From contig OZ252299.1 in assembly GCA_965250285.1 (NCBI GenBank), positions 2,528,001-2,592,000 on the forward strand: DNA of 64,000 nucleotides. The letters run 5' to 3'. The stretch is from Myxococcota bacterium. GTDB taxonomy: Bacteria; Myxococcota_A; UBA9160; UBA4427. Made by a program: the position numbers and the translations under genes. Of this stretch, positions 5,243-35,805 are shown one piece after another. Positions within the stretch are counted from its first letter, which is position 1. Every line of letters starts with the position of its first letter. A model generated the notes under the pieces. It was not told where the DNA came from. It did no database searches and saw only the letters and a program-made list of their open reading frames with translations.

Positions 5243-5243
5243 A

Positions 5244-15705: not shown

Positions 15706-15716
15706 GAAACGAGACG

Positions 15717-16653: not shown

Positions 16654-16704
16654 AGGAGCGAGATGGTCTCTCTCCTGGGCCTCTAGCCCGAATGGGAGAG
16701 AGCC

Positions 16705-16980: not shown

Positions 16981-17089
16981 TTCGAGTCCGCATCGGGACG
17001 CGACCTCGGGAGAAGTGTTCTCCCGAGGCGCTCCCGAAAAAGGTTGCGCCACTTGGGTCGACTCACGCCATAACACTGATGGAGTAACG

Positions 17090-17353
17090 ATGAGCAACAA
17101 CCCACCAATAAAGAAGTATCGCCATGGGAGAGTCTCGTGCGCGATTTGGCAGAACGAACACGAAGGCGAACCGTTCTTCACTTGCAGCCTCACCGGAAGC
17201 TACAAGGACAAGACGACAGGCGAATGGAGAGATAGCCACACCTTTAGCCTCTACGACCTCTTTGCCGTTCTTCGCTGCGTGTGCGACGCGGCCGCTTTCC
17301 TGACGCTTTCGCCGTCGGACCCGATGGAACCGAACTTGGGGGTCGAACAATGA
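17090..17353 (+). CDS. Small beta-rich protein, putative ssDNA-binding (paralog 2)
   Basis: RHGRVSCAIWQNE..FFTCSLTGSY...WRDS.TF; aligns with paralog 1. Confidence 0.7.
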   Translation: MSNNPPIKKYRHGRVSCAIWQNEHEGEPFFTCSLTGSYKDKTTGEWRDSHTFSLYDLFAVLRCVCDAAAFLTLSPSDPMEPNLGVEQ

Positions 17354-17886: not shown

Positions 17887-18482
17887 TGGGACATGGTCCC
17901 GAGGCTGAAAGGCCTACCGACTCGGGTGGAGTTCCGAGCGAGCCGACCCCAAGCGCAGAACCCGACCCTTGGGCCGAGGCCTCGCTTCCACGAGTCGAAC
18001 CGGAGACAGAGGCGCCTCGAGCCGCCAGCGAGACGACGCGCGTGCGCGAAGTCGTCCTGCAGTACCGAGGGCGCGCACTGCGGGCTCCCAGCGTTATTCG
18101 GGAGCCCGCCGGGGCCGTCGACCTCGCCCGACGAATCGTGCGAGACGACGCGCGTGAGCACTTCCTCGCCGTCTATCTGGATGGCCGCCACCGCCCCATT
18201 GGCCACTCAGTGGTCTCCATTGGTACGGCGACCGCGTCGCTCGTTCACCCGCGCGAGGTCTTCCAGAGTGCCGTTCTCCTCGGTGCCGTCTCGGTGCTTC
18301 TGCTCCACAACCATCCGTCTGGCGACCCATCACCGAGCCGAGAGGACTCCGAAGTGACAGACCGGCTGCGAGATGCAGGTCGAATTCTGGGCATCCGGCT
18401 TCTCGACCACATCGTGTGGACTCGGCACGGCGGCTATCACTCCTTTCGAGAAAGCTCGCCGGCCGAATTCGACCGCAGTTAG
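17886..18482 (+). CDS. radC: RadC-like JAB domain protein
   Basis: REHFLAVYLD, VHPREVF, HNHPSGDPSPSRED, LLDHIV. Confidence 0.92.
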   Translation: MGHGPEAERPTDSGGVPSEPTPSAEPDPWAEASLPRVEPETEAPRAASETTRVREVVLQYRGRALRAPSVIREPAGAVDLARRIVRDDAREHFLAVYLDGRHRPIGHSVVSIGTATASLVHPREVFQSAVLLGAVSVLLLHNHPSGDPSPSREDSEVTDRLRDAGRILGIRLLDHIVWTRHGGYHSFRESSPAEFDRS

Positions 18483-18514
18483 ACGCGATACGAGAACGCG
18501 AGGGTTGCTGGCCG

Positions 18515-19069
18515 TCAGTCGCTTTCTAGCTCTTCGGCGTTGGCCCCTAGCCAGTCGTCGAGTTCGAACTCGTCGAACAGGTCTCCAGGCTCTGACTGCT
18601 TCCAGCCAAAGTGAAGCCACTCCCGAGCGTCAGCTTCTGCGGCCGAGTAGTCGTCAAGCGTGTGCTGCCCGCTGCTCTGCACGTGCAGGAAAGCGTGCGC
18701 CAGCTCATGTGCGATCGTCGTCCGGACCAATCTTGGCGGCATCCGATCTATCAACTCAGCGGCGAAATCCATCTCGGTGTAGAGAAGCCGAGACTGCGCT
18801 ACTGCGTGCGCAGATGGACCTTGCTCGAAGCCCGGAGACTGCCGGGGCAGTAGCGCGATGCGCGGGATTGGCGCCATTTCGCCTTGCAGATCTTTCGGGC
18901 CGCGTCGCTCCCTCCAGAGGCCATTGAGCAAGCTCCGGTGCTCGGCTGGAATCATGTTCCAGGTCTCGCGGAAGAGAGCGGCGAAGCGTTCATCATCGCC
19001 GTAGCCGAGCGGCGCTACATACAGTCCCCAAGAGCTGTCGACTTCGAGCAACTCCATACAACAGTCCAT
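18515..19069 (-). CDS. HExxH zinc metallopeptidase-like protein
   Basis: TIAHELAHAFL with downstream AEADA. Confidence 0.7.
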   Translation of the reverse strand: MDCCMELLEVDSSWGLYVAPLGYGDDERFAALFRETWNMIPAEHRSLLNGLWRERRGPKDLQGEMAPIPRIALLPRQSPGFEQGPSAHAVAQSRLLYTEMDFAAELIDRMPPRLVRTTIAHELAHAFLHVQSSGQHTLDDYSAAEADAREWLHFGWKQSEPGDLFDEFELDDWLGANAEELESD

Positions 19070-19227
19070 AGCCTATCGGCGGCCGTGATTGGTCAATCCA
19101 GGATCGCTCAACTCGCTGGCGCAAGAGCAGGGTGGCGCCGGAGAGTATTCAAACGGGACAAGCGTGCGTCCCGCGCCGACACCGAGCCGGCATTCGCTAC
19201 GCCTCGATAATCTCGCACGAGCCGCAA

Positions 19228-19692
19228 CTACGGCCGAATCACGCCCTGAGGAACGAGCTCCGCATCGATGAGGGCATTGAACTCGGGGCTCTGGAAGCCC
19301 TTCGCATCATTCCAAACGGCCCGAGGAATCGGGAGCGCGAAGAAGGCTCGGATATCGCTCTGCAGTCCCCAGATTGGCGTGATGGCCCCGGCGCGCGTCG
19401 CCTCGAACGCGGCGTTCAGGTGAAGGACCAGGAGCATCACGAAGAGCCGCTCCTCGCCCGTGATAGGCGTTGCCTCGAGGTTGGCGCCGGGGTCGGTGAC
19501 GCGGAGCAGGGAGGGCTTGTCAAAGACCTCCTGCCAGAGCGCTCGATGCCCTTCCGTGAACCGCACCAAGCCATCGATTCGAAGTGCCCTGCGCTGGGCC
19601 CATGCGGACCAGCCGGATAGCGCGAGCCCCGTGACGATTCCCAGCGTCTGGATGAGTTCGAACCAATGATGGGCAAGCCAGGCTGGGATCAT
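19228..19692 (-). CDS. Hypothetical protein with N-terminal TM helix
   Basis: GAGGAG RBS; hydrophobic N-terminus then helical domain. Confidence 0.7.
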   Translation of the reverse strand: MIPAWLAHHWFELIQTLGIVTGLALSGWSAWAQRRALRIDGLVRFTEGHRALWQEVFDKPSLLRVTDPGANLEATPITGEERLFVMLLVLHLNAAFEATRAGAITPIWGLQSDIRAFFALPIPRAVWNDAKGFQSPEFNALIDAELVPQGVIRP

Positions 19693-19753
19693 TCTCCTCG
19701 TGCACGTTCGCGGAATGCGATGCGTTTTCCACACAACGGAATACCATGATTCG

Positions 19754-20002
19754 CTACTCCGAGGGAAGGTCCTCTCGCGCCGCGGTCAGGATCCGCCTCG
19801 GGACCAGTACGATTTCCTCGTCGGGCCCGCAGCTTGCGGTCGCGGGGAGACGAGGACCGAGGGAAGAAGTGCTCCGGATTCCGATGACAGCAAAGTCGCC
19901 GTTCGAGAGCTCCCAGACGTCGGGGCAACCTGCCAGGCCGGGCGTGTCACCCGCCTCGTGGGGGTCCGGGCCGAGCCGACGAACGAACTCGAGCGAAGCC
20001 AT
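19754..20002 (-). CDS. Small conserved-looking hypothetical protein
   Basis: AGGAGG RBS; CPDVWELSNGDFAVIG motif. Confidence 0.75.
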   Translation of the reverse strand: MASLEFVRRLGPDPHEAGDTPGLAGCPDVWELSNGDFAVIGIRSTSSLGPRLPATASCGPDEEIVLVPRRILTAAREDLPSE

Positions 20003-20039
20003 GTGCGGCCTCCTTTCCTGGAGTCGAAGACAGCAAAAT

Positions 20040-20054
20040 ATCCCATTTTGGGAT
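20040..20054. promoter_or_regulatory. Palindromic operator candidate
   Basis: ATCCCA-ttt-TGGGAT in an AT-rich patch between divergent genes. Confidence 0.5.
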
Positions 20055-20103
20055 CTTCGCTACTGCGGGCGTCTCCTGCCCCAGAACAGGGGGGGCCGCT
20101 GAG

Positions 20104-20349
20104 ATGCCGCGGAAGGCGGCGGCCGACGCCCAGGACGCCCGCGACGAGGCCCGATATGCCCGGCTGCTGGCCCTCCTGCGACAGGCCCGGAAGGAGGCCG
20201 GACTGACGCAAGTCGAGGCGGCGGAGGCCCTCGGGAAGCCGCAATCCTTCGTCTCGAAGTGCGAGGCCGGCGAGCGGCGCATCGACGTCGTGGAGCTCGA
20301 GCGCTTCGCGAAGGTCTACGGGAAGCCGGTGACCTTCTTCTTGGAATAG
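20104..20349 (+). CDS. XRE family HTH regulator
   Basis: LRQARKEAGLTQVEAAEALGKPQSFVSKCEAGERRIDVVEL. Confidence 0.92.
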   Translation: MPRKAAADAQDARDEARYARLLALLRQARKEAGLTQVEAAEALGKPQSFVSKCEAGERRIDVVELERFAKVYGKPVTFFLE

Positions 20350-20399
20350 ACACTCTGCGCAGCTTCGGTTGGCCCTCGGCGACGGCGGTCAGGCCGAGC

Positions 20400-20995
20400 T
20401 CAGTCGCTCGTCACATCCTCGATTGCCTTCGCTAGCCGCTCCTGTCTCTCGTCGAGGAACTCATCAAAGCGGCCCTCTCGCAAGGTCGAGCCCTGCCCAC
20501 CCGGAAGGAGATGGGATTCGAGCACCTTGTCGAGTCGGTCGGCACCCAGTTCGGCCTCGATCTCAGCCAGGTAGACCACCGGTGCCTTCTTCCCGATTCG
20601 AATGTTCGTCTCCTTGTCAATCAGTGTCCGATTGAGAATGCAATCCCGAAGCGTTGCCGTGACCTTGACATCAGCATCCACCAAGTACCCCTTCGGAAAG
20701 ACGTGGTGGTCGTCGATCTTCTTCTCGAGAACCATGCTGGCCGTTATGCGATTGCCGGAGTGGAAGTCCCGAGCCTCGCTTCGAAGAATGAGGGCAATGC
20801 ATCCCCGATAAACGCCCCTCTGCCGAGGTGTCGTCTCTCGAAGCACATCCGGCTCAAACGTGAAGCTCTGGACACTCTCGGGCTCGTCGCCTCCCGCGAA
20901 CCAGTTCGTGAGCTCCGTGTAGTCCTTGACTGCCTGCGAGTTCGGGGCGTTCTCGTACGACTGACCGAACACCGAGCACCAGAACCACCGCTTCG
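20400..20995 (-). pseudogene. C-terminal fragment of a DUF262/GmrSD-type protein (DUF1524-like HNH motif)
   Basis: RWFWCS, IDDHHVFPKGYL, ILNRTLIDKETNIRIG; no own start, begins at junction ~20995. Confidence 0.75.
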
Positions 20996-22443
20996 TCAAA
21001 GAGCTTGTCGTTGCGGGCGCTCGCGATAAGCCTGGCTTGTGGGTTCTCCTCCTCGCGGAAAATGAGACGGTCCCCATCCTGATGAATATTGAAGCTGTTC
21101 TCTACGATTGCGGCGAGCTCCGCCTCAAAGGCGTTGTCGTCGACCGGCTTGTCTCTGGTTATATCGATGTGTAGAACCTGCGGAACGGCCCCCGCGAGGT
21201 TCTCGGCGACAAGGGAGCGCAGCCACAGCGCGCCGATGATTTCTTCAAGATGAGGAACTGTCTGGTCAGCATCCTTCACCGCGTCGCGCACCGCTTCCAG
21301 GTTCCGCTGGGCCTTCTCGCGAAGCTTCTGGTGGTGCTGGTTCGCGACCGAGTCGATGAGGGCGGTAATCCCGCTGGCGTCGTCCTCAATACGGAAGTCC
21401 GCGGCCGTGATCAGCGGTTTTGCCTGGCCGTGCTTCTTGTACAGCTGCGCGAGGATGCGAATTAGGTCACGGGTTTCCTGCGCTGCTGTTGCGACCAGCA
21501 CATGGTCTTCAAGTAGCTGCATCAAGTGAGGGGCGAAGGGCCACGTCTCAGCGAAGTCCTGCTTGGTGCGCTCATGCTCGCTAGGCGGAATCTCGGCGAG
21601 GCGGAGATACTCAGAAACATGTGCTTCGGTCAACGTCGAGATTTGGTCCGCGGGCACTTGGATACGGTTCTCGAACAGCCTGTGAAGCAACAAGCGCTGG
21701 CGATCCCGTTTAGCAGTCGGCCCTTTGAAATCGACAAGGATGGGACTGACCCGTTGAATCTGCTGAAAGGCGTCGGTGCTGCCGTTCCGCACCGAGACCA
21801 CAAGCACGAGTAGTTCGGGATGTTCCTTCGCGATTTCCGAGAGAATCTGGACGAAGTTGAAGGCCCAGTTGCGATAGGGGGTTCGCTTGGTCTGCGACAG
21901 CCCGTCGAACCACGTCTGATACTCATCTAGAATAAGGGCGCACGGTGTGTGCCTAAAGAGCTCAAGCAGCAGCTTTTCGCCGGGGACGTCCGTCTGCTTG
22001 TCGCCTTGCCCCATCCACATACCGCGGACGTGAGCGCCGTGCGGATGCCTGTCGAAGAGTAAATCCCACAAGAACTTGTAACTCTGCTTGTGAAGACTCT
22101 CGCTGATCACGCACATTGAGTCTCGCAAGGGCAAGGCGGCGATCTGCGGGTTGGCTAGGCGTTCACTCCATTCACTCAGCCAAGAGCGCGTGGCGTCCGG
22201 CTCGTTGAAGGCGTGATCGAGCACGGCCATCAAGTGGGATTTACCCTGGCCCCGCTCACCAATCATGACCAATGGACGACCCTGGCTGGGACCCACTGCC
22301 TCGATGGATTTGAGAACGTCGCCGGAGGGGTAGGTGATCTCCAAGAACTCGGTGGCGGCCATCTTCTTGGCCGTATCGAGCTCGATAGCGGTGCCTTTGA
22401 GACGGCGTCCCCGGAACTCTTCTCGCAGCTTGAGGTCAAGCAT
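20854..22443 (-). pseudogene. DUF499-type ATPase, C-terminally truncated
   Basis: Walker A GERGQGKS, Walker B LILDE, WPFAP; after NDKLFD the frame runs into an off-frame tail. Confidence 0.75.
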
Positions 22444-22494
22444 GAGAGAGACCGCCTGGTCTCTGAGCGATATCCAGCTCAGTCTTGTGGGCTC

Positions 22495-22704
22495 TCATAC
22501 CTTGCGGGCCTCCTGTTGTGCGTTCGCCGTCTTCTGAGCTTCTACCCAGGTCTGGATGTCCTCCGGGCGGAAGCGCCAAGCGCCTGCCACCTTGAATCCT
22601 GGCAGCTCGCGGCGCTGGGCGAGGCGGTAGACCGTCTTCTCATTGACATTGAGATAGGCAGCTACCTCGCGAACGGTCATGGCGGGAGGAGTGGAGTCCG
22701 TCAT
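22495..22704 (-). CDS. Excisionase-like HTH DNA-binding protein
   Basis: MTVREVAAYLNV..TVYRLA..LPGFKVAGAWRF; GAGGAGG RBS. Confidence 0.9.
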   Translation of the reverse strand: MTDSTPPAMTVREVAAYLNVNEKTVYRLAQRRELPGFKVAGAWRFRPEDIQTWVEAQKTANAQQEARKV

Positions 22705-22790
22705 CAGCCTCCTCAGGCAGGGAATCGGGTCCTAAGTAGTCCAAGTGATGGTACTCGCAGACATACGTGCAAGCCATCGATTCCCGGCCA

Positions 22791-23480
22791 CTATCTGGCG
22801 AGATGCCCCCCGGGGCTGTGGCTCGGTGGAGGAGAAAAGTGCGGCGGCCACGGTCTGCAAGCGCGAATGCAGTCCGGACACAACCGGCTCAGACCCGCCG
22901 CCTGCCGCCGGTCATTGACGCGCCGAAGAAGGGCCAGGAACTGGCGGCGCACAGGGGCATATACCTGCCACCGCGACGACTGCCTCCAGAACTCCGCCCG
23001 AAGCCGCTCCGTAGAGCGGCGGAGCGCGATGCACTCGAATTGCCGCTTGAGGTTGCGGTACGTCTCCTCGTCGAGACGAACACTCGCACGTTCCCGATGC
23101 TCGCCCCTGCGCATGGCCGAACCGTCGCGCCGCAGAGCGACCGAGTAGCCATGCGCCCGAATCGGCGTCTTTCGCAGGTCTCGAACCCGCTCCTTGGCAT
23201 CAACGGCCAGAACGAAATCCGGCGAAGTCGCCATCAAGACCCACGCCCTCCCGTGGCGGAAGTAGTGCGCGTTCGAGAGGCCGCGAGCTTTCCGGTAGGC
23301 GCGCTGCCTACGCGTCTTCCGAACGCCGTACTTCGACAGGATCTTGTCGTCGACCCGCTCGACCGCTTTTCGCTCGGGCACTTCGCCCTGAACGAAGAAC
23401 CGGTACCCGCATTGAGCCAGCACGACGACGCGCTGCACAAAGCCGGCCGGCGTCGCGCACTCATATCGGTATGGCTCCAT
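22791..23480 (-). CDS. Hypothetical basic protein
   Basis: 229-aa ORF, GGAG RBS. Confidence 0.65.
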   Translation of the reverse strand: MEPYRYECATPAGFVQRVVVLAQCGYRFFVQGEVPERKAVERVDDKILSKYGVRKTRRQRAYRKARGLSNAHYFRHGRAWVLMATSPDFVLAVDAKERVRDLRKTPIRAHGYSVALRRDGSAMRRGEHRERASVRLDEETYRNLKRQFECIALRRSTERLRAEFWRQSSRWQVYAPVRRQFLALLRRVNDRRQAAGLSRLCPDCIRACRPWPPHFSPPPSHSPGGHLAR

Positions 23481-25037
23481 CTCCGCGCTCGCTCTCTCTG
23501 CTCTGCAAGATGCAGGGTTTCTCTCGGCGAACCCTGCGAAGACCGCACTCCAACCTCCTTTCTGCAGGCGTCGCTGCGCCTACTATGTCCCTCCTGGCCG
23601 TTCCCCAACTCATGGCTGTGCCATTCTCGCGGTCAGGAAACAAGGAAACCTGCCACCGCACTCGCGGTGTCCCTTCCTTCGCCAAAGTCGCCGTGAACCG
23701 GATGAGAGCTGCCAAGCTCCCAGCCGCTTCGCGTCCTGTCAGAAACCAATCCGCCTCGGGCCCCTGCCCGAGAGGCTCTTCCAGGCCAGCGAGGGGCCTC
23801 GCGCACTCAGGCGCGAGGCCTCACCCCGCTAGCCACGTCTGTGGTCGCGTCACTCGCGAGCCACCTCGGCGCTTTCGTTCGTCGCATCGCGTTCGGCTAC
23901 CACCCCGAACGCACGAAGGGCTCCACGACTGGCAGCCGTGTCGCCCCGGAGGCCAAAGCCTCCCTGTCCTACTTGCGCCCCGCTCCCACACTTCAGACCA
24001 CCTCGGATGACGTACCGAGCGCGGCGAGGAACCACCCTCGCTCATCTGAAGTGCTTCCCCGATTAGCAGTCGAGGTCTGATCAGAACGCAGGTCCTGGTG
24101 GTGAGCACATACGCGCGTCGGACATCCGTGTCGAGACCGGCCAGGGCCTCGACATTCTCGGGAACGCGTTCCCGAGCTTCGGGGTACGGACATAGAGGCT
24201 CCCCCTATGCCGGATGGCCGATTGTCCCAGTCTGCCTAGATAGCCGGTCGATTCCGGCCCAGCTCCTGCATTCCATTACGGGCAAGCCCTCGCGGGCCTC
24301 TTACACCGTTGAGCTCTTCGCGCGACGCACTTAGTGAAGGAGCACGCGTGCTCCGTTTTCATGCGTCGCCCGCGTTGTCTGCGCGGTACAGGGCCTCACG
24401 ACCGCTGTAGCTCCCGGCGCCCGCAGCGTAGACAGGTCTCAGAGAGACCTCGCCCCCGCTGGCTGGATTCGAGGGCCGCGTTTGCGGTCCCTCCCACCAG
24501 CTTCCTCAACCGCGGCCCTCGATCGCTCCCGAACGGAGCAAGCTCGAGGGTATGTCTCGGTCGCCCACGTCCCTGTGCGAACTGTTGAATGGGATAGAAG
24601 CTACGGATTGGACCTCGATCGAGGTGATTACTCGTAGCAGCCTCCCTCGCGCACGGACAAGCCAGTCTCCCGGCATCCGGCGCTAAGCGGCAAGAAGTTT
24701 CGCGGATGGTTAGCCCGCGCCCTTAGCCAAGCTGGTAGGGCTTGGTTTACCAGGTACTTCTCCACAGACGGAAGAGCCGAAGCAGACGCGTATCGCGCTG
24801 CCTGGCGTGAGGTCTATCCAACCTCTCAACACACTGTTATGCCCGGAAGCGCGTTGCTAGTCAAAGAACGGCGCGAACGACCGAGCATCATTGGGGCCAA
24901 CGTTTCCCATTACTCCCTTTGTGCAGACGGACCGCTCGGAGCCAATCAGCCTATTGCGTACCTCAGAAACCTATGAGACAAGCGAAGAGATGGATCCGTC
25001 GGATCCGGCAAGCAACTCATCATGACCAACAACCACA

Positions 25038-25835
25038 ATGACAATGACCATCGCATTCGCAAACGAGAAGGGAGGCGTCGCAAAGACCGCCACATGCGTG
25101 AACCTGGCGGGGTGCCTTCTCGAGCAAGGCTTCCGCTGCCTGATCGTCGACTTCGACCCACAGGGAAGCGCTGGCGAGCATCTCGGCATCGCTTCCAGTG
25201 GGGAGGAACTTCTCAAAGCCCTGTCTGGCGAGCAGTCGATCGCCGACCAGGTATGCATGACCAAGAGCGGCATCGATCTCGTTCCGAGCGGTCCCTACCT
25301 GCATGCGCTCCTCGAGATGCCGCGGCGAGCCCGAGAGCGCCTCCTCGAACGCGCTCTGGGTGAACTTCCCTGTGAGACCTGGGACTTCATCCTTCTCGAC
25401 AGTCCGGCCAGAAACGATCTATTGGCCGACAACGTTCTGGTCGCGGCCGACGTCGTCGTCGTCCCCGTCGAGTGCAAGAATCAGTCGCTATCGCCCCTTC
25501 TGCGGCTTCTCGACACCGTCGACCAGGTGCAGAGTGAGTTCGGCTCACCTCGGGGCATCCTCGGCATCCTGCCGACCCGCTACCGAGCTACGACCAGCAT
25601 GAGCAAGGACTTCGTTCGCGTGCTCCGGAGCCAACTCGGTGACATCACGTTCGACACGGTGATTCGAGAGAGCACGAAGGTGGCGGAGGCGCCGAGGAAG
25701 AGCCTTCCCGTCTGCGCCTACGCTCCAGAGAGTCCTGGCGCCACCGACTACAAGACCTTCTGCGAAGAATTCCTGAGCCGCGTTGGCGAGTTCAGCATCC
25801 AATACGCTGGAGCTGCTGATGGAACAGGAATCTAA
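25038..25835 (+). CDS. parA: ParA family ATPase
   Basis: NEKGGVAKT, IVDFDPQG, LLDSP, IRESTKVAEAP. Confidence 0.92.
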   Translation: MTMTIAFANEKGGVAKTATCVNLAGCLLEQGFRCLIVDFDPQGSAGEHLGIASSGEELLKALSGEQSIADQVCMTKSGIDLVPSGPYLHALLEMPRRARERLLERALGELPCETWDFILLDSPARNDLLADNVLVAADVVVVPVECKNQSLSPLLRLLDTVDQVQSEFGSPRGILGILPTRYRATTSMSKDFVRVLRSQLGDITFDTVIRESTKVAEAPRKSLPVCAYAPESPGATDYKTFCEEFLSRVGEFSIQYAGAADGTGI

Positions 25836-26151
25836 GGAATCTACCGTTGCGTTCGGCGCCATTGCGGACAACCTGCGCCGACGGAACCTGACGCCCGCGC
25901 GAAACCGAGCCGCCCCGAAGGCCGGGCCGCGGAAGAAGCGCGTCTCGTTCCATCTGACGGAGGACCTCGCAGAGCGCCTCCGGAATGCTGTCTACCACCT
26001 GTCCGGGCCACCACACCGGCTCACGATGGCCGCTCTCGCCGAGTCAGCCCTGCATCGCGAGGTCTCGCGCCTCGAGAAGGAAGCCAACGAGGGGGAGCGG
26101 TTCCCCAGCAGATCGGAGGAGCTCTCGGGAGGTCGAGGTGTCGGACGGTGA
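25819..26151 (+). CDS. ParA partner, RHH/ParG-like
   Basis: RVSFHLTEDLAERLR..LAESAL; overlaps parA end. Confidence 0.7.
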   Translation: MEQESKESTVAFGAIADNLRRRNLTPARNRAAPKAGPRKKRVSFHLTEDLAERLRNAVYHLSGPPHRLTMAALAESALHREVSRLEKEANEGERFPSRSEELSGGRGVGR

Positions 26152-26152
26152 G

Positions 26153-27280
26153 ATGAGCCCGCCATCAGGTCGAGAGTTCCCGAGACGTCCACTGCTCTCC
26201 GTTGAGAAGCAGGTGGAAACGAACATCGAGACAGGTCGCTCCCAGACTCGAATGTTCGTCAAGCTCTACTTCGAGGCCCGAGACTCCGGTCTGCTGGCGG
26301 AGATGCCTCCCGAGCTGTGGCACACGCTTTGCTGCCTCGCCACGTACATGAACGAGGAGGGGCTCTGCTTTCCAGGCCAGCAGCGGATGGCACGGGAGCT
26401 CGGGATCAGCAGGCAGCAGCTGAACTCCAGGCTGAAACGCCTGGCCGCTTTCCGGTTCCAAGGGCGTCCGGTTATCCGAGTTTGGAAGGAGCGTAGGCGC
26501 GCGTCCGGGCGTTGGGCTCGGAACATCTACCGGGTCATGCCCGTGACCGGTCTGTCGATCTTCGGCTCGAACGCCGTGGACGGCGCCGCTGGCGGCTCGT
26601 CCGAGTCCGTGTCAAGTGGAGACGACACGGAGACCATGTCACCTCCACCCGACGCGGCCGGGCCTGACATGAACCAGAGCCATTGTTTGAACGAGAACAC
26701 AACGTGTGTTCGTTCAAACAACGTTCCTACGGGCGCATTGCTGCAGCTCTTCCACACGCGTCTCGGAAGACCGAATCACAAGCCCAGCCCGAGAGAGCAC
26801 ACGCAGGCCCGGAGATTGATTCTGGCCCACGGACCTGAGCGAGCGCGTCTGGTGGTAGAGCATGCTCTTCAGGCCGCGACACGGACGAACTTCCGGATGA
26901 GGTCGTTCGGGGCGGTGCTCCGCTACGTGGACGAAGCGCTAGCCGAGCTGGCGGCCCTAGAGTCGAAGAAGTCGAGGCAGCACGCCGAACGGCGGCGAGA
27001 GGCTGAGAAGCTTCTCCATCGCAACTATCTCGATTGGAAGCGTTCCGAGATCGCTCGCCTGCGCGCGAACTTGCCAGCGGCCGAAGCAGATGAACTCGGC
27101 CGCGCTGCACGCGACCGAGTGATTCGCGAGCACGGAGGGCAGCCCCCGGTCGGCTTCGAGACTTTGGTACGGATCGTCGTGGAAGAGGCGATATCGCGCT
27201 CAAATTCCCTTCCGGACTTCGACACGTGGAAGATGCAAGGCGCCCCAGCGAATACAGCCCTCGCGCGTGTCGCGCGTTGA
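26153..27280 (+). CDS. HTH-domain replication initiator-like protein
   Basis: LCCLATYMN..CFPGQQRMARELGISR..LKRL..N.Y pattern; repeat-bearing linker; follows par genes. Confidence 0.7.
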   Translation: MSPPSGREFPRRPLLSVEKQVETNIETGRSQTRMFVKLYFEARDSGLLAEMPPELWHTLCCLATYMNEEGLCFPGQQRMARELGISRQQLNSRLKRLAAFRFQGRPVIRVWKERRRASGRWARNIYRVMPVTGLSIFGSNAVDGAAGGSSESVSSGDDTETMSPPPDAAGPDMNQSHCLNENTTCVRSNNVPTGALLQLFHTRLGRPNHKPSPREHTQARRLILAHGPERARLVVEHALQAATRTNFRMRSFGAVLRYVDEALAELAALESKKSRQHAERRREAEKLLHRNYLDWKRSEIARLRANLPAAEADELGRAARDRVIREHGGQPPVGFETLVRIVVEEAISRSNSLPDFDTWKMQGAPANTALARVAR

Positions 27281-27564
27281 ACGCACTCAACACGGCGAGA
27301 GCGAATACAACGTATTCGGTTCGCGTGCGCGAATACATTCTGGTGGATTGACGACTACTCGAAGCGCTCAATACGGTCGATTGCGAGGAGACTCGCATGA
27401 ACGTTCGTCGTAGTTGCGCGAACTACCTGCCCAAGCCGGTCGCGATTTCTTGCTCGGCTGGCCGTGCGCCTTCGAAGGCGACTGCGGTTCTCCTCGTTCA
27501 GATCAGCGTGAGACGCGTTGGCCGGTTGGGCCAGCGGCCTGACGCTGCGAGCAAGGAGAGCGTC

Positions 27565-28332
27565 ATGGAAGCAAGCAAGATCGAGTGGACCGACTGCACC
27601 TTCAACCCGTGGATCGGGTGTTCGAAGGTCTCCGCGGCGTGCCGTGCCTGCTACGCGGAAACGCTGATGTCGAAGCGCTACAAGCGCGTCGAATGGGGTC
27701 CCGGCAAGCCCAGGTTGCGGACGAAGGAAGCGACGTGGGCGCAGCCCCGTGCCTGGAACCGCAAAGCTGAGAAGAACGGGACGAGGCTCCGCGTCTTCTC
27801 TGCGAGCCTCGCGGACATCTTCGATGCCGAGGTTCCGGAGGAGTGGCGAGACGACTTCTGGAGTTTGGTCTCCGAGACTCCCCACCTCGACTGGCTGGTG
27901 CTCACGAAGCGGCCCGAGAACATCAAGCCGATGCTCCCGAACGATTGGGGCACCGGGTGGTCGAACGTCTGGCTGGGAACCACGGTCGAGGATCAGGGCG
28001 CCGCCGATGCGAGGCTCCCCCAACTCCTGGAAGTCCCGGCCGTCGTTCGTTTCCTCTCCTGCGAGCCGCTTCTGGAGCCGGTCATCCTCCGTGGCTGCAC
28101 CGGGCTCGACTGGGTCATCGCGGGCGGTGAGACGGGCGCGGACGCTCGCCCGACGGACCCGACGTGGGTCCGCCTTCTTCGGGCGCAGTGCCTCGGTTCG
28201 CGTACCGCCTTCTTCTTCAAGCAGTGGGGCGACCACGACGCGACTGGCAAGCGGGTCGGAAAACACCGTGCGGGGCGGCTGCTCGACGGCCGGACCTGGG
28301 ACGAGTTCCCGACCCCGGCCGAGAGCCGCTAG
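27565..28332 (+). CDS. DUF5131 (phage Gp37/Gp68-like) three-Cys protein
   Basis: SKIEWTD.TFNPWIGC..S..C..CYA, LTKRPE, SCEPLL, GGETG, FFKQWG. Confidence 0.92.
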   Translation: MEASKIEWTDCTFNPWIGCSKVSAACRACYAETLMSKRYKRVEWGPGKPRLRTKEATWAQPRAWNRKAEKNGTRLRVFSASLADIFDAEVPEEWRDDFWSLVSETPHLDWLVLTKRPENIKPMLPNDWGTGWSNVWLGTTVEDQGAADARLPQLLEVPAVVRFLSCEPLLEPVILRGCTGLDWVIAGGETGADARPTDPTWVRLLRAQCLGSRTAFFFKQWGDHDATGKRVGKHRAGRLLDGRTWDEFPTPAESR

Positions 28333-28365
28333 CGCGGCCACGCCGGTCGAGTTGGGCGCTGACCA

Positions 28366-28584
28366 ATGATGTCGCGAGCCACCGACATGCTCCGCCAAGC
28401 GCACCCCGCGGCCTATCGGGCCGCGGTGCGCGGGCTGGGCGCCCGTACGTGCGGATCGCGGGCGATGTCTCACCGCGCCGCGACCTCACTTGGGGCGGAT
28501 CCCCATCTATGTCGAGCAGCCTCTCGGGCTCGGCACTGCATTTTGTCTCTTCCACGCGGGGGGCCCCGTTATGGCGGCCCGTGA
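28366..28584 (+). CDS. Small basic protein upstream of integrase
   Basis: 72-aa ORF filling the gap and overlapping the integrase start. Confidence 0.35.
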   Translation: MMSRATDMLRQAHPAAYRAAVRGLGARTCGSRAMSHRAATSLGADPHLCRAASRARHCILSLPRGGPRYGGP

Positions 28585-29734
28585 TCCTGATACGCTGTGG
28601 GAGATGGCCGAGAAGCTGGGCAACATCCTCTTCGACAAGGGAACCTCTCGCTACTACGTCCAGCTCTTCTGTCGCTGGCCGGGCGACAAGAGATCCAAGC
28701 GGCACCGGGTCTACGCCGACTCAGAAGGCGAGGCGAAGAAGATCCTCCGCCGCATCCAAGGCGAGGTTGCGCACGGCGCGCAGCTGTACACCGTATTGGC
28801 CCGGTACGTCGGTGACCGCAGCCGCAACGCCTTTCTCAAGCGATGGCACGCCTTCTGTGAAGAGAAGGACCAGGACGTGGAGAGCGGGCGGCTCGCGGCC
28901 CACCGTGCGAAGGAGCTCCGTCGCTACGAGGACCGCGAGTACCTCGACTTCTTCGCTGGGGTACCTCTCCACACCATCGACCGACCGAAGCTCGTCGCGT
29001 GGGTGCGATGGATGCGGCGGAAGAAGCTCAGCGAGAAGACCATCAAGAACGTGCTCTATGACATCGGGCACTTTCTTCGCTGGCTTGCCGACCAGGGCGA
29101 CATCGCGGAGGCGCCGGCGATCCCCTCGAAAGAGCTGAGACTCATCGAGTACGACCCGCAGATCCCCGAAGCGGATGTCGTCGAGAAGGTGCTCGCGGAA
29201 ATTCCCATCGAAGAGCGGGGCGTCTTTCTCGTCCGGTCGTTCATGGGCCTCCGACCCTCTGAAGCCCGCAGACTCAACGTCTCGGACCTCCGTCTCCGGA
29301 ACGACGAGGACCTCAGCGACGCCTATCTGAACCTCCCGCCGCCCAAGACCAAGACGAAGAAGGCACGGAAGCTCCAGCTCCACCCAGTAGTGGCGGAGTG
29401 GCTCGCCGAGTACGGAGAACTCGACCGCTTCGGAGGCGAGCCTCTCTTCCGCAATCCCGACGGCTACAACGAGGAACAGCGCTGGCTACCGGGAAGCGAA
29501 CGTCGGGTCTTGGAGCGGGCCTACAAGGCTGCCCAGGTAGCCTGGATCAAGCCTAACGAGTTCGGCCGCCACTTCTTCGCCACTCACGCGGTGAACGACC
29601 TGCAAGCGGACATCTTTCCGGTGCAGGCGTGGCTGGGACACACCGATCCCAAGACGACACAGCGCTATGCCAAGCTGCGCCCGGTTTCTATCGCAAGAAT
29701 CATAGGGAGCCCCCGAGAACGCGGCCGTCGCTGA
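28571..29734 (+). CDS. Tyrosine integrase
   Basis: GLRPSE, KTK, NEFGRH, WLGH...TTQRY. Confidence 0.93.
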   Translation: MAARDPDTLWEMAEKLGNILFDKGTSRYYVQLFCRWPGDKRSKRHRVYADSEGEAKKILRRIQGEVAHGAQLYTVLARYVGDRSRNAFLKRWHAFCEEKDQDVESGRLAAHRAKELRRYEDREYLDFFAGVPLHTIDRPKLVAWVRWMRRKKLSEKTIKNVLYDIGHFLRWLADQGDIAEAPAIPSKELRLIEYDPQIPEADVVEKVLAEIPIEERGVFLVRSFMGLRPSEARRLNVSDLRLRNDEDLSDAYLNLPPPKTKTKKARKLQLHPVVAEWLAEYGELDRFGGEPLFRNPDGYNEEQRWLPGSERRVLERAYKAAQVAWIKPNEFGRHFFATHAVNDLQADIFPVQAWLGHTDPKTTQRYAKLRPVSIARIIGSPRERGRR

Positions 29735-29830
29735 AGACGATTCGGCACTGCGGACTACTCGACCAATCGATGAGGCGAGGCAGGCACTAGCAGTCTGCCG
29801 AGCCTCCGACGACACCCGGGAGCGATACCG

Positions 29831-30493
29831 TTGAAATGCATCAAGTTCGAACTTCGCCTCGTCAATCATCAGGCAACAGACAAGAACGAGCGAGATATGC
29901 TCGAGGACATCTGGCGGAAACAAACAGTCGTAGAGCGACTCATACTGCAGCACGCCCCGTTCCGACCGCACCAGGTCGCAATCAATCCAGTCCCGGACGA
30001 GAACGCGTTGGAGCATCTCGACCTCATGGACGCAGTCGCGGACCGCGCGGACATCGTGGAAGAGGCACTTGTAACATTCTGGAAGATGTCAGATGACCCG
30101 GACGCGCGGCTGCAGGTTCTCGAAGCCGCGCTCGTCCATGAAGCAAGCCTCCAGTCGTATATCCAGTACGCAAGCGCCAGGAACGCTGCCTGGAGTTCCC
30201 GCGCGGTTGCCCCGAATGCCGACGCCTTCAAGGCCGAGCTTGTCGGTGCGCTTGGAAGGTCACGCTCCGTCACTGATATTCGTGTGACTCCCCGGTCGGG
30301 CCGGCTGGATCTAGAGATCGACGAGCGCCGCGGGGACACGAGCGTCACGTGGCATCTACGTGACTTGAATGCATCACCGCAGCTGGCAGCCGATTTCGTC
30401 ACTCGGCTCCGCACGCTGGCACCACCTGAACTGCACCAGGAACGTCACCCAGCGCGAAAGGGGAGACAAGACACTCTCTTCCCGGAGCGCTAG
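29831..30493 (+). CDS. Hypothetical protein
   Basis: 220-aa protein-like ORF; start uncertain. Confidence 0.5.
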   Translation: MKCIKFELRLVNHQATDKNERDMLEDIWRKQTVVERLILQHAPFRPHQVAINPVPDENALEHLDLMDAVADRADIVEEALVTFWKMSDDPDARLQVLEAALVHEASLQSYIQYASARNAAWSSRAVAPNADAFKAELVGALGRSRSVTDIRVTPRSGRLDLEIDERRGDTSVTWHLRDLNASPQLAADFVTRLRTLAPPELHQERHPARKGRQDTLFPER

Positions 30494-30555
30494 CAGAAGC
30501 CCGTGGGCGCGGAGCTTCAAGTTCATCCACACCTTCAGCGAACGGACCATTCATC

Positions 30556-30906
30556 ATGGGATACAGCTACGCCGAAAACATTCGGGCCGCCGGCCAGTAC
30601 CTTCTTGAGATTCTCGACCAAAACGGGAGTGTCGAGTATGCGCGCTTCTACGACGGCTCCGAAACCACCGCTCATGCGTTGTACACCGGGATGGGGCTAA
30701 CTATAGAAGAGGGAGAGAGCTACTGCGCCGAGCATCTCATCGACCTCGCGGCTGCTCAACTCGAGCGCCAGGGATTCGTACACACCGAGATACTCAGCTC
30801 CAAGCTCGCTGACGGCGAACCCAACTACTCGATTCAGCTGGCTCCCAGTGCTCAAGAGCGAATCGCGTCTGGGGAGCAGCCGACGTACTGGGACGTTGCC
30901 GAGTAG
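30556..30906 (+). CDS. Hypothetical acidic protein
   Basis: 116-aa ORF. Confidence 0.6.
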   Translation: MGYSYAENIRAAGQYLLEILDQNGSVEYARFYDGSETTAHALYTGMGLTIEEGESYCAEHLIDLAAAQLERQGFVHTEILSSKLADGEPNYSIQLAPSAQERIASGEQPTYWDVAE

Positions 30907-30928
30907 TCAGACGGCGCTCGCCCTCCTG

Positions 30929-33900
30929 CTATAGCTCCGGTAGGTAGTAAGCCAGGAGCTCTCGCATCAACACCTCTCCACGCCGCGCCAATCGCTCGAT
31001 GTCTGCTTCTGCCATCGGCGAGAAGTTGGTCGGGTACGTATAGACCTCGTGCCGGCGCGGCAGGTCCGGCGGAAGCCACGGCAGGCTCTCGTCGATCTGA
31101 CCAAGGTACGCGAAGGCGAATCCCGAGATGGCGCCGGTCGCAGCATGCCTATGGAGTCGGTTGCGTGTCGCATCCTGGACCTTGCGGAAGGTCGTCAGGA
31201 ACGAACGATGCATGCGCGTCGGCCACCACATCGGGAAAGAGTCCGCATCGAACAATCCGCCTCCGGCATCGCAGGAGATGATGTACTTCGGGTCAAAGAC
31301 GTTTGTGCTGACGTCCGGCGACCGGCCCGGCTCCATCGGGCCAACTCCCAGGTTCTCGAAGACGCCACCGTCGGTCAGCAGAACACGGTCGACTCCGACA
31401 TCCTTACCCCTCTTCGAGAAGCGATACTCGCGGTCAAGCGCTGGAAGGAACACCGGATAGGCAGCGGAAGCTGCAACGGCATCAGCAACAGAAGAAGACG
31501 CCGGTGCGATCGTTCCGAAGCGCCAGCATCCGGACTCTCTGCTCCCGAATCGGAAGGCTGAGCCGGTGCGAAGCTCCGTCGCATTGATCACGACGTCCAG
31601 CGAGTCTCGCACCACCTCACTTGTCTTGACCTCGCCGAACAGCGTGCGGGCCAGGGCGGTGCGAAACGCTTCGGCCCGACTGTGGGCCCGAGCCGGAGGA
31701 ACCGACCTCGGGTCTAGGAGTCCACGCTGCAATCCCGATGGCAGCATTGCCCCAAGGCCTCTGAGCATCGATGAAGGTACGTTCCGAAGCATGGCGGCTG
31801 CCGTGCGGGCCATCGAGCCTGGCGTCAACCACGCCTTCGCAATCTCGCCTACCAGCCCCTCCCTCAGCAACGACGTGACGCGAGCATCAAAGTCGGCAAA
31901 GTCCTCGCTCGAGTACGCATACATGGCGGCGATGACAGAGCCACCCGACACACTGGAGATCACCTGGAGGCGGTCGAGGAGGTCGAGATCAGCGAGGGCC
32001 CGGAGACATCCCAGGTGGAAGGCGATCGCCCGGGAACCACCCCCAGATAGCGCCAGTCCGACGTCTCTGGGCGAGGTCACATCATTCGAAATGCCCGATG
32101 TCGATGACGCATCCATCGACACGACCACCGAGTTCTGCAGTCGGCGCTCAGTGCGGAACAGATGCGCTCCCATAGTCGGGTCATCCGGACTTCCAGACAG
32201 AATCAGAAGAAGGCAGGTCCGTCGGTTCGACCCAGGGGTCGCGAGCAACTGATAGACGGCGCCTATGTCAACCTCACTCGGCTCCGCGCGGGACCGCGGG
32301 TGGGTGTGCCAGCTGCCGACACATCTCACTGACTTGCGAAACCGGCCCTCTTTCTCTGCCGCCGCCTCTTCCATTCCTTCGACGCCGCAAGTGAAGTGGA
32401 GTGCGGATGCATCGCTGTCGGGCGGTGGACCTGCGACCTCGGTCACCCAAAGCACGCCCGCCGCCTCACTCAGCTCGCCGAAGATCAGCCCTCCAGTCTC
32501 GCAATCACGCCCCGCTGTCCTCTCGGACCGGCGTGCCCATCCGCGCATCTCCCGCAGGGCTTCCGGAGAGATCCGGATTGAGAACTCGTGGCTAGGGTCA
32601 TCCAGAACCAGCTCGCTCGACCACCCGAATTCATGGAGCTCTCCTCCACCTGAGAACATCCAGCCCGCGGCAGCACTCGGCTGGTCGTGGCTGCGGAGCG
32701 CGTTGGCGATTGCGTTCATCGCACGCGCGGATAGTGACGCGAGGTCGGCATCTGAGCCGACGAACGTTGGCTCAGAGCACCCTGGTTCAGGCTGGAAACG
32801 TGCGGGGTCGCCCTCAGAGGGCCAGAAGGTGTCGCGCAGCGCGCCAAGGACGGAGGGATCCCGGCACGCAGCAATCTTCAGGCGACGCAGCAGATCCAAC
32901 GTCCCACCGCTATGGCCCGGCATGGAGAGCGTCGCAATGGCTGACGAAGCGTCAAAGCCGATCCCCAGCGAAGCAATCGGCGGACGGACTCCTTCCGAAC
33001 GCAACACCCGCTCCGCCTTGGTTCGCACCGGCTGAGATGCAGTGCAGTCGATGATGATGTCGACATCGGAGAAAGGGGATGGGTCGTCGAGCAGGTAGAG
33101 CAGGTTACTAGCCAGCGCCTCGGCCTCTAGCTGAGAGTCGACCCTGCGCAGTCTGTCCCCGAGAGCCTCTGCTTTCGGTCTTCCGATGTCGGACTCATCG
33201 AAGCACTGCCGGACAAGAATGCCCGGTACCACCGTCCCGTTGTCAATCAGGCGGAGGGTCGAGGCGCCTGCCCGAGCGATCGATTCCGCGACTCGGGATC
33301 CGATCGCGCCGCATCCCCAGATCTCGACTCTTTTGCCCCGGAACCACGACATCGGAGAGTCGGAGTCACGACGACGAGTGACCTCGGGGCGCATCTCGCG
33401 AACAGGGCACCAGCCTACTTTGGCCTCGAGCGACCACTTCGCCACTTGAGCGATTGCCGCGTCCCGCCCTTCCTCGCTGGGCTCGCCCGAGGACTTCTGC
33501 ATCTCGCGAAGCTGGTCGGCGTCTTCTCCGGACACCTCCCAAACAGCAAGATGCTGTAGAAGTGGGCCGCTTGCCTCGACTCGCCGCATCGGGGTGCCCA
33601 GAACCACGAGCAACGGCAGCCCGCGGTCAGTGCGGGCAGCAAGGGCCGCCAGCAACCACAGGAAGGTTGCCGTTTCGATTCCCTGGTCGTCGAGCTCCTT
33701 GAGGAGTTCGTTTACCGTCCCGGGGTACTCGAAGGGCAATGGCCGCGGCAACAGGATCGCGGGGGCGAATACCGCGGGCGCCCCTTCAGACGCACGGACC
33801 CACGCGGCGATCTCGGTTCTGTTCGGGAACTCTTGAAGCTCTGCGTATCCGACCCAGCCCCCTTCGCCTACGTCGGGCGTGTCCGCTCGCGGAACCACGA

Positions 33901-34348
33901 GACGCGCGGTGGATTCGTATGCAACCGGCGGATGTAGCGGCGCGTCGTCTGGGTCAAGATTGCAGACCGCCGCGTCACGAACCCACTGGTCCAGTCGGGC
34001 CACAAAGCCATACATCCCACCGTCCGGGTCCCACTCGAGTGTGCTCTGATAGAGACAAGGGTGGCGGCGCCATTGCACGTGCGGGAAGCCTGCGAACCGG
34101 TCATGGGCAACGGCGACGCGCGGGTACACGAACGGGAATTGAGGGGAGATCGCGAGGTGGAAGTGCTCCCTGGCGCGAACAGGCAAGCCCTCGGGCGCGC
34201 GCTCCAACCCATCGAAGCGGATCGAGATCTCGAACTTCAGTATCGAGCCGTCTTCGCTCGTCGACTCGGAGATCAGCTCGACACTTCCATCCGATGCTTC
34301 CGAGATCTCCTGGAGCTGCTCCCTCGCTGACGCCTGGCCATCGGTCAT
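30929..34348 (-). CDS. E2-E1(ThiF)-JAB-patatin fusion protein
   Basis: E2 FP..YP..PHV..HPC98LY; E1 G345CGAIG, LID, LVRQ, DCTA, EPGC524; JAB ETGG, H681TH..S..D; patatin SG769GG, SVS801GG, D993GG. Confidence 0.9.
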   Translation of the reverse strand: MTDGQASAREQLQEISEASDGSVELISESTSEDGSILKFEISIRFDGLERAPEGLPVRAREHFHLAISPQFPFVYPRVAVAHDRFAGFPHVQWRRHPCLYQSTLEWDPDGGMYGFVARLDQWVRDAAVCNLDPDDAPLHPPVAYESTARLVVPRADTPDVGEGGWVGYAELQEFPNRTEIAAWVRASEGAPAVFAPAILLPRPLPFEYPGTVNELLKELDDQGIETATFLWLLAALAARTDRGLPLLVVLGTPMRRVEASGPLLQHLAVWEVSGEDADQLREMQKSSGEPSEEGRDAAIAQVAKWSLEAKVGWCPVREMRPEVTRRRDSDSPMSWFRGKRVEIWGCGAIGSRVAESIARAGASTLRLIDNGTVVPGILVRQCFDESDIGRPKAEALGDRLRRVDSQLEAEALASNLLYLLDDPSPFSDVDIIIDCTASQPVRTKAERVLRSEGVRPPIASLGIGFDASSAIATLSMPGHSGGTLDLLRRLKIAACRDPSVLGALRDTFWPSEGDPARFQPEPGCSEPTFVGSDADLASLSARAMNAIANALRSHDQPSAAAGWMFSGGGELHEFGWSSELVLDDPSHEFSIRISPEALREMRGWARRSERTAGRDCETGGLIFGELSEAAGVLWVTEVAGPPPDSDASALHFTCGVEGMEEAAAEKEGRFRKSVRCVGSWHTHPRSRAEPSEVDIGAVYQLLATPGSNRRTCLLLILSGSPDDPTMGAHLFRTERRLQNSVVVSMDASSTSGISNDVTSPRDVGLALSGGGSRAIAFHLGCLRALADLDLLDRLQVISSVSGGSVIAAMYAYSSEDFADFDARVTSLLREGLVGEIAKAWLTPGSMARTAAAMLRNVPSSMLRGLGAMLPSGLQRGLLDPRSVPPARAHSRAEAFRTALARTLFGEVKTSEVVRDSLDVVINATELRTGSAFRFGSRESGCWRFGTIAPASSSVADAVAASAAYPVFLPALDREYRFSKRGKDVGVDRVLLTDGGVFENLGVGPMEPGRSPDVSTNVFDPKYIISCDAGGGLFDADSFPMWWPTRMHRSFLTTFRKVQDATRNRLHRHAATGAISGFAFAYLGQIDESLPWLPPDLPRRHEVYTYPTNFSPMAEADIERLARRGEVLMRELLAYYLPEL

Positions 34349-35544
34349 CAGCCGTACGTTACTGCGGCTCCAGGCGTCGCGTCCGAACCACGCGCCTCGG
34401 ATGCTGCGGCAGACGCCGTCTTCGCGGTCGCAGGGGTCGCGAGGGTCTTGATCGCCCCGCCCTCAAGGGTCACCACGATGGGGGTCGGATTCTCCATCGT
34501 GCACAGGAACGACTCGGTGACCGTCTCATAGCGGCGCTTTGCTTTGGCGTGCGGCGGGTTATCACCAGGCTGGTTCGACGAAGGCACCGGATTCGAGCTC
34601 GACACAATGCGATTGGGACTCTGCGAGGCAGCCGCCATCGCATCGAGAATGTGCTGCTTGAGGACCTCGTCGCCACCGTTCTCATCCTTCCAGTACATGA
34701 CGGACTTCGAACAGTGGTGCGGGGCGAGGAGGACGTTCCACGCGAGATCGTCGGGCTGACTGACGTCAAAGATGCGCTTGATCGTCGGGTACTTGAGATC
34801 ACCGAGCAGGAGAGCACGAAGCGCCTGCTGGCCATCGAAGAGGGACACCTGGAGACCGAGACTCGTCGCGTTCCGCTCGCCCGAGTCGTCGCCCTTGAAG
34901 GGGGCATGGACAAAGCCGCGGAAGGCTCCGGTCAGGTCGACGTAGTCCACAGATTCAAACTGAGTCCCAGGAACGACGATCCGGCTGCTCGGGAAGCCGT
35001 TGAATTCGGGCTCCTCGAGTAGTTCGGAGTAGCCGAAAATCCGAACCCTGTTCCCGGAGCCAGGGTCACCGCTGGCGCTGACCGTCGCTCGAACCCTGCG
35101 TTCCGCCTCCTTCTTGAAGGCGGTGGCGTCGTCGCACAGGTCCTTGTGGTACTCGCGGAAGACGCGGGGGGTGAACCAAAGCTCGCCGATGTCGACCCTC
35201 TCGAGAAGGGCCTCGAAACCGCGGCAGTGGTCCTGGTCGGGGTGCGTGAGAGCGAACGCCGCGAGGTACGGACGGCCTCCGCGTCGTGGCAGCCGGCTCG
35301 CGAGCTCGTCCACGACCGACCAGGCGTTGTCCTCGTCGCTCTCCGATTTCTCGAGGTGGTTGATATCCACCTGGATGAACGTCTCGGCATCGACGGCGAT
35401 CGTCGTGCTATCGCCGTTGCCGACGGGCCAGAAGACGAAACCGCGCGGGGGGAGTTGGAAAGTCACGATGTCCTCCTCGGAACCGGGCTCGGGGAAGGCC
35501 AGGTTCCGTTTATTGTCGTCTGGCCCTGTGTCAGCTCCGGACAC
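34348..35544 (-). CDS. ComEC/Rec2-type metallo-beta-lactamase fold protein with C-terminal Gly tail
   Basis: VGNGDS, THPDQDH, LLGD, PHHCS; Ala/Thr-rich tail ending AVTYG; TGATG coupling to the fusion gene. Confidence 0.9.
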   Translation of the reverse strand: MSGADTGPDDNKRNLAFPEPGSEEDIVTFQLPPRGFVFWPVGNGDSTTIAVDAETFIQVDINHLEKSESDEDNAWSVVDELASRLPRRGGRPYLAAFALTHPDQDHCRGFEALLERVDIGELWFTPRVFREYHKDLCDDATAFKKEAERRVRATVSASGDPGSGNRVRIFGYSELLEEPEFNGFPSSRIVVPGTQFESVDYVDLTGAFRGFVHAPFKGDDSGERNATSLGLQVSLFDGQQALRALLLGDLKYPTIKRIFDVSQPDDLAWNVLLAPHHCSKSVMYWKDENGGDEVLKQHILDAMAAASQSPNRIVSSSNPVPSSNQPGDNPPHAKAKRRYETVTESFLCTMENPTPIVVTLEGGAIKTLATPATAKTASAAASEARGSDATPGAAVTYG

Positions 35545-35658
35545 AGGGCCAGCTGCGGCGGCGACGCTGGGGGGGGGTGGAGGACGCCGTCTGGTACAGC
35601 CGAACTAGATAGGCACGGCAGGCGTTCGGTCAAGCCGCGGGGGCCTGCTAGCGCGGCT

Positions 35659-35805
35659 GTGCCTCAGAGGTGCCTCAAGCCAGAAAACAGGCTTGCAAGC
35701 TATTGTTTTTGAAAAGAAAATGGTGGAGGCGGAGGAATATACCCTGCGTCCGCTTCAATCAAATCAAGCACTTATGACGGAATCAGGTGCCTCGTAGGAG
35801 CTCGC
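35659..35805. repeat. att site 2 (degenerate tmRNA 3' end, 35721-35751) with arm repeats and IHF site
   Basis: GTGCCTCA-gag-GTGCCTCA 35659-35677; TGGTGGAGGCGGaggaatataccctGCGTCC; AATCAAGCACTTA 35762-35774; decayed arm GTGCCTCG 35787. Confidence 0.85.

Follow-up and report, generated by a model that had tools for sequence, protein, structure and literature searches.

A predicted 6A-MBL anti-phage system in which the E2-E1-JAB protein carries a C-terminal patatin

In type II CBASS (cyclic-oligonucleotide-based antiphage signalling systems), Cap2 acts by adenylation followed by an E1 and then an E2 thioester, this conjugation is reversed by Cap3, and patatins serve as effectors. Cap2 is described as joining cGAS through its C-terminal Gly and Cap3 as cutting behind that Gly, in a source whose accessible text makes no mention of a metallo-beta-lactamase-fold (MBL) enzyme (10.1101/2022.03.31.486616). 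Signalling enzymes of CBASS, Pycsar and MBL pathways are conjugated by Atg7-like E2-E1 proteins according to the available text of PMC11601596, and a lipase or a membrane protein is given as the usual CBASS output in that of the review PMC13276650. An operon of E2-E1-JAB plus MBL forms row 6a of Table 1 in the accessible part of Iyer, Burroughs and Aravind 2006 (PMC1779556), from the main text of which the word patatin is absent. The accessible part of PMC13276650 credits this system, 6A-MBL, to van den Berg 2024, a study that PMC11601596 also cites, and a preprint, in its accessible portion, counts it among the known jumbo-phage defences (10.1101/2025.09.30.679545). Here we describe a locus in a 64,000-nucleotide stretch of a Myxococcota bacterium (contig OZ252299.1, positions 2,528,001 to 2,592,000; this whole stretch is called the window), in which an MBL gene is followed by a gene for a single protein of the order E2-linker-E1-JAB-patatin (Table 1).

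By its sequence, the core of the locus is 6A-MBL, an already named anti-phage system (operon type 6a), since both proteins exceed the curated NCBIfam cut-offs. The fusion scores 342.4 bits against the cap2_3 model NF058523, for which the cut-off is 320, and the MBL enzyme passes NF058524. The E2, E1 and JAB domains lie on one chain in that order, a specialised MBL adjoins them and the catalytic residues are intact. The anti-phage role proposed in an initial annotation of the window is judged likely. The same annotation had read four enzymes in order from one open reading frame, and this is borne out by a single uninterrupted frame of 1139 amino acids with Pfam matches above cut-off, from N to C terminus, to Prok-E2_A (residues 10-147), ThiF (339-443), Prok-JAB (614-702) and Patatin (765-1003). 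The E1-E2 model of PADLOC spans residues 2-556 (E 1e-90). The predicted model of the fusion (predicted local distance difference test, pLDDT, 74) has Cap2 (7to3) as its top fold match (E 7e-21), in agreement with the initial comparison to Cap2; the alignment with E. cloacae Cap2 7to3 begins at residue 191, in the linker domain.

Table 1. Coordinates in the window of the two genes, their domains and the likely mobile island
Feature	Position	Strand	Basis
E2-linker-E1-JAB-patatin fusion (6A-MBL cap2_3 + patatin)	30929..34348	-	NF058523 match, residues 54-716
E2 domain, residues 10-147, Cys98	33908..34321	-	PF14457 E 6.6e-19; C98 70/70
Cap2/ATG7-type linker domain, ~residues 148-335	33344..33907	-	alignment to E. 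cloacae Cap2 7to3
E1 adenylation domain, ~residues 336-556; GCGAIG, R380, K392, D434, Cys524	32681..33343	-	PF00899 E 5e-18
JAB/JAMM isopeptidase, ~residues 583-734; E617, H681-x-H683, S691, D694	32147..32602	-	PF14464 above cut-off; PADLOC JAB E 1e-18
Variable JAB-patatin linker	32066..32146	-	42 linkers compared
Patatin phospholipase, ~residues 762-1139; SGGG oxyanion loop, S-x-S801-G-G nucleophile, D993GG	30929..32065	-	PF01734 E 3e-18
6A-MBL enzyme, ComEC/Pce-type MBL-fold hydrolase	34348..35544	-	NF058524 276.5 bits vs cut-off 220
Flexible MBL C-terminal tail ending T-Y-G398, likely conjugation handle	34351..34392	-	residues 385-398 pLDDT <50
Likely mobile island, ~31.5 kb, defence system as cargo at right end	4158..35752	.	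tmRNA-end copies 4158 + 35721; gene families
Degenerate tmRNA 3'-end copy, likely right attachment site	35721..35752	-	repeat of tmRNA end

The catalytic residues named initially are all present. C98, G345xGxxG350, C524, E617, H681, H683, S691, D694, G769-G771, S801 and D993-G995 are the same in all 38 close homologues. In a wider set of diverse ligases, C98, C524, E617, H681, H683 and D694 are kept in 70 of 70, a count that is partly built in for the His residues, since the rows were trimmed at WHxHP and one row without this motif (L128) was left out. C524 is probably the E1 catalytic Cys, as judged from its position and its invariance across the 70 ligases. S801 and D993 are kept in all 42 fused patatins compared. 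The patatin domain has the Gly-rich loop, the Ser nucleophile and the Asp of the DGG motif, and its nucleophile motif reads S-x-S-G-G. The canonical patatin motif is G-x-S-x-G.

In each of four public runs (X4, X5, X6 and X16), which come from four studies, one contig covers the junction between JAB and patatin without insertion or deletion; a stop or frameshift between the two domains, against which the initial annotation had cautioned, is seen in none of them. The X6 contig spans 30940-34513. The junction contig of X16, an RNA run, is 258 nt long, and this run has four short contigs over the operon, from which neither transcription nor its level follows. An assembly artefact or read-through as the origin of the fusion is ruled out by the junction contigs across runs, the homologues and the loci of relatives. 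A scan for sigma-70 promoters found no site.

In print, the system is already named, and the part for which no description was found is the patatin fusion on its core. A full-text literature search that included PMC10557695 and PMC13069673 found no patatin in 6A-MBL and no four-domain protein; figures or supplements of the earlier operon papers may show a patatin. Within the text searched, the initial view that this architecture is not a characterised system holds for the fusion but not for the core. In common with 6A-MBL, the window has an MBL gene and, after it, E2-E1-JAB on a single chain, each scoring above its curated cut-off, but its ligase bears a C-terminal patatin, which the available descriptions do not mention. 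It also falls within a YG/FG-tailed clade, deeply separate from the one with mostly RAG/HG tails. Ledvina 2023 reportedly discusses MBL-group operons.

The stop of the MBL gene overlaps the start of the ligase gene by TGATG at 34348, as first noted. The MBL frame probably starts at GTG 35466 (V27, after GAGGAGG), where the homologues begin, which leaves 372 amino acids. Its site, H101-x-D103-x-D105-H106, N225, D249 and H276-H277, is invariant in 86 of 86 MBLs, and its model (pLDDT 84) has the beta-lactamase-like domain of ComEC as the best fold match (E 6e-14), with Pce next. A Gly motif (TYG, GFG, RAG, PHG or similar) lies within the last nine residues of 85 of the 86 MBLs, compared with 83 of 861 control open reading frames; the pattern was derived from those same tails, and the control frames are the fair measure of it. 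Around ten RVG-FG tails were ended two residues too soon by this pattern. The tail stops at the Gly in 16 of the 86, the window MBL among them, and has a short extension beyond the motif in the other 70. These extensions fit trimming by JAB, a step that would be unnecessary at the window, where the MBL ends at the Gly. Two PDC-M48B-like MBLs, one in L074 and one in L182, that are not themselves paired with a 6A ligase have no such Gly tail. The cGAS tail in Cap2 systems is described, in the accessible text, as flexible, like the tail of the window MBL. Because of the conserved C-terminal Gly motif, the MBL enzyme very probably takes the place of the cyclase as the conjugated protein, in line with the Gly-tailed MBL of the initial annotation.

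With type II CBASS the locus shares the Cap2-like E2-linker-E1 fold, the JAB eraser, an enzyme that ends in Gly and is the likely substrate, and an output in the form of a patatin or a membrane protein. Unlike it, the window system has no CD-NTase (cGAS/DncV-like nucleotidyltransferase), its Cap2 and Cap3 equivalents are fused rather than separate, and its S-x-S-G-G patatin gives only a weak, partial match to CBASS phospholipase models. The PADLOC phospholipase model matches weakly, over 48 residues (E 1.2e-5), as does the nucleotide-activated CapE (E 0.012). No CD-NTase was found among the flanking genes or the recurring neighbours, and SMODS was absent, in one profile run, from the 95%-complete genome. 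The initial statement that no cyclase or ubiquitin-like gene lies nearby can be extended: the operon is a two-gene unit, and none recurs among neighbouring frames of at least 70 amino acids in 78 related loci. Bil and Bub likewise have E1, E2 and JAB in a defence or mobile setting, but the window system has no ubiquitin-like gene and its fused E2-E1 is non-canonical; it also keeps its cysteines, which Bub, in the available account, does not. PDC-M48 (a PADLOC candidate with components A and B) and trypsin-MBL modules share a ComEC-like MBL in defence, and PDC-M48B-like MBLs repeatedly adjoin the present system, but the window has no protease partner and its 6A MBL matches PDC-M48B over about 80 residues only. 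Next to the system there is often a further MBL, of the PDC-M48B-like kind (L003, L023, L042, L121, L126, L146, L151 and others); by profile it was found in 10 of 57 metagenome loci.

The distribution of the fusion was examined among relatives. A protein search gave 997 matches, and among the best 120 of these, for which the layout was read, 119 have the full four-domain layout, at 56-63% identity when the window's own fragment is set aside. The best 150 cluster representatives (50% identity) comprise 36 full four-domain proteins, 14 partial fusions, 92 with the ligase only and 8 others. In the genome collection a single-protein query gave no match; an alignment query gave 184, and the best 78 were taken as loci. 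The fusion is whole in 51 of them; in 13 JAB and patatin are fused and the protein is otherwise cut or broken, two are interrupted elsewhere, nine encode the patatin separately, as a third gene, and three contain only the patatin. Wherever the DNA upstream of a whole fusion could be read (50 loci), it holds an MBL, which is broken in two cases.

The same patatin subfamily also occurs as a gene of its own. Among 57 patatin-anchored metagenome loci, 24 are fused (one is the window's own sequence) and 20 have the patatin as a separate gene after the ligase; eight lack readable upstream DNA, two are fragments and three hold distant patatins. All 14 full-length plasmid matches are separate genes, 13 after a 6A ligase and one after a different MBL. 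The window patatin domain and the free-standing patatin encoded third in a Halomonas locus (L070) share 42% identity. Of 20 plasmid loci, hand-picked from two match lists, ten have a patatin on the same strand behind the ligase, one has a convergent patatin there, four a membrane protein (one convergent), two a second MBL and three no gene at all; both core genes exceed the 6A cut-offs in all that were checked, namely 7 of these 20 and L080. The ligase of P0226 carries, in place of the patatin, a fused membrane domain that resembles that of L120. The third position is thus swappable and holds a patatin, a membrane protein or a second MBL. In L074, L075, L189 and a second pair in L182, a patatin also stands right behind an MBL without an intervening 6A ligase; that of L182 is a more distant patatin. 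The fusion appears dispensable, since relatives have the patatin fused, separate or replaced, and beside ligase-free MBLs. Given that the patatin occurs fused and that the third gene can be exchanged, the curated two-gene definition may miss an output arm.

On the ligase tree, one clade holds 17 split rows and the other 45 fused and 8 split rows. Changes between fused and split forms number six on this tree (at least four forced) and ten on the patatin tree (at least three forced), with midpoint rooting only. The same patatin subfamily accompanies both deep ligase clades. These patterns suggest that the patatin is a long-standing partner and that the fusion was gained or lost repeatedly. A single origin of the fusion is not shown, given the forced changes on the two midpoint-rooted trees.

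These observations bear on the initial proposal that the fusion gates the lipase. In such a scheme the patatin would be controlled directly by the conjugation state, through an MBL attached to or docked on it or through release by JAB, with no diffusible signal. The predominance of the fusion among the best 120 homologues, its presence in the cluster representatives and the lack of a recurring cyclase near the 78 loci speak for direct gating. However, split forms of the same subfamily are common in the genome, metagenome and plasmid loci and are interleaved on the tree, an unrelated membrane protein can occupy the same slot, and there is no conserved linker site and no invariant patatin lysine (K1056 is found in 29 of 42). 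Direct gating is therefore considered quite unlikely. The JAB-patatin linker is 28-84 amino acids long (median 32) and unconserved in sequence across the 42 linkers. The self-cleavage that had also been suggested is not supported by a search of the linkers for a site resembling the MBL tail: the pattern occurs in six linkers, five times as R-V-G or R-A-G and only once as TYG, and four of those five matches are the patatin's own first strand. Gating by self-cleavage is thus weakened by a variable linker without a conserved JAB site.

The reading favoured here, tentatively and with a chance put slightly below even, is a CBASS-like logic in which conjugation controls the MBL enzyme and the MBL enzyme activates the lipase via a small hydrolysis product and not by contact. 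The E1 and E2 domains would attach the MBL via its C-terminal Gly to a target, and JAB would trim or reverse this link. The conjugation-controlled MBL would then turn on the phospholipase, and infection would be aborted through damage to the membrane; the patatin is probably the killing output. Conjugation may either prime the MBL or keep it inactive, and CBASS offers a precedent for each, priming in the available text of 10.1101/2022.03.31.486616 and sequestration in that of PMC11153139. The fusion itself likely just fixes stoichiometry and location. The initial conclusion that no second messenger is involved does not follow from the absence of a cyclase, because the MBL may itself make the signal.

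Several observations weigh against this CBASS-like logic. No signal-binding site was identified on the window patatin. Because the queries for the locus samples were the fused protein or pieces of it, the samples are biased to patatin. Among the fused patatins that of P0194 is degenerate, and several of the loci are broken. The ligase-free MBL-patatin pairs are few (four), and one of them, L189, has another E1/E2/JAB set upstream. The third gene is absent in L080, L119, L124 and L127; because of such loci, and of the two genes of the curated system, the MBL-ligase pair can apparently act alone or borrow an effector encoded elsewhere. The related ComEC-like MBLs of defence systems are DNases that kill directly, those of the Hachiman type being latent DNases, in the accessible text of 10.1101/2025.09.03.673762. 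This last point, the loci without a third gene and the predicted ComEC nuclease domain fold of the MBL also favour an alternative in which the MBL is a killing nuclease, freed or activated by the conjugation cycle, and the patatin a parallel or accessory effector with its own cue. This alternative leaves unexplained why one patatin subfamily stands behind both deep ligase clades, fused in most of one clade and also beside MBLs in other contexts, and it is held to be rather unlikely.

A role of the patatin as regulator and not killer can also be considered, in which an ATG7-like ligase puts the MBL on a phospholipid, in the manner of ATG8, and the patatin releases it from the membrane. The E1s of Cap2 and 6a operons are called ATG7-related, and ATG3 moves ATG8 onto phospholipid, in the accessible literature; a lipase joined to writer and eraser would suit regulation. 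However, JAB supplies reversal already and the membrane-protein swaps are better suited to an effector; lipidation is regarded as very improbable.

The system lies as cargo in a likely mobile island with genes for a TrwC relaxase, a TrwB coupling protein, RadC, ParA and a tyrosine integrase. The window contains no tRNA, and the att-like repeat is a tmRNA (transfer-messenger RNA) end; the intact tmRNA gene is about 13 kb to the right of the window, and further 3'-end copies lead up to it. Hosts of the system come from many phyla, and only 2 of 301 genomes of the window's phylum, and 0 of 18 of the same family, are above cut-off. This patchy occurrence and the island context count for the explanation favoured here. 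The likely island is part of a tandem array at the tmRNA gene, with about five 3'-end copies (window 4158, 35721 and 53900; G000:C1:2527693-2605799). Doublets of GTGCCTCA lie just inside both island ends (near 4226 and 35661) and are possibly arm sites of the integrase. A repeat of 19-50 nt (GGGATAGGGACCGG...) occurs three times at 15717-16057, in an intergenic stretch of the island that is possibly an origin, and a match to a group II intron 3' end at 24589-24685 (minus strand) is below threshold (33.7 bits vs 40).

Other features were seen around related loci. A separate conjugation-type operon encodes a 57-64 amino acid peptide, E2, a Phd-E2 fusion, E1, JAB and a ComEC-like MBL (L189:1255-6161, on a plasmid of Mesorhizobium AR10, and L026:2095-5781); its E2, E1 and JAB are also found in L005, L011, L020 and L030. 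The peptides share an MRExLGGEY motif and may be a non-ubiquitin modifier. The same patatin subfamily directly follows the L189 operon, and the L026 operon lies just upstream of a fused 6A-MBL. The 6A ligase of L080 (760-3606) has 948 amino acids, with about 245 extra N-terminal residues ahead of the modelled region, and no third gene. A conserved frame of about 147 amino acids on a putative coding strand, without a PADLOC match, stands just downstream in 10 mostly actinobacterial loci (L049, L054, L057 and L060-L066).

No explanation of how 6A-MBL stops phage, or of what its MBL does, was found in the accessible literature. It is possible, though doubtful, that 6A-MBL is a full analogue of CBASS. 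In that case an MBL-fold hydrolase would be a signal synthase of a new class and its product a second messenger of a new class in immunity, exchangeable lipases or membrane proteins would read the signal, and the ligase-free MBL-patatin pair would be a 'type I' form. The two-gene fused form would be a compact system in which to test an MBL-fold enzyme for the making of an immune signal, as it has a single lipase read-out and its writer, eraser, MBL and effector can each be removed by a single-residue knock-out.

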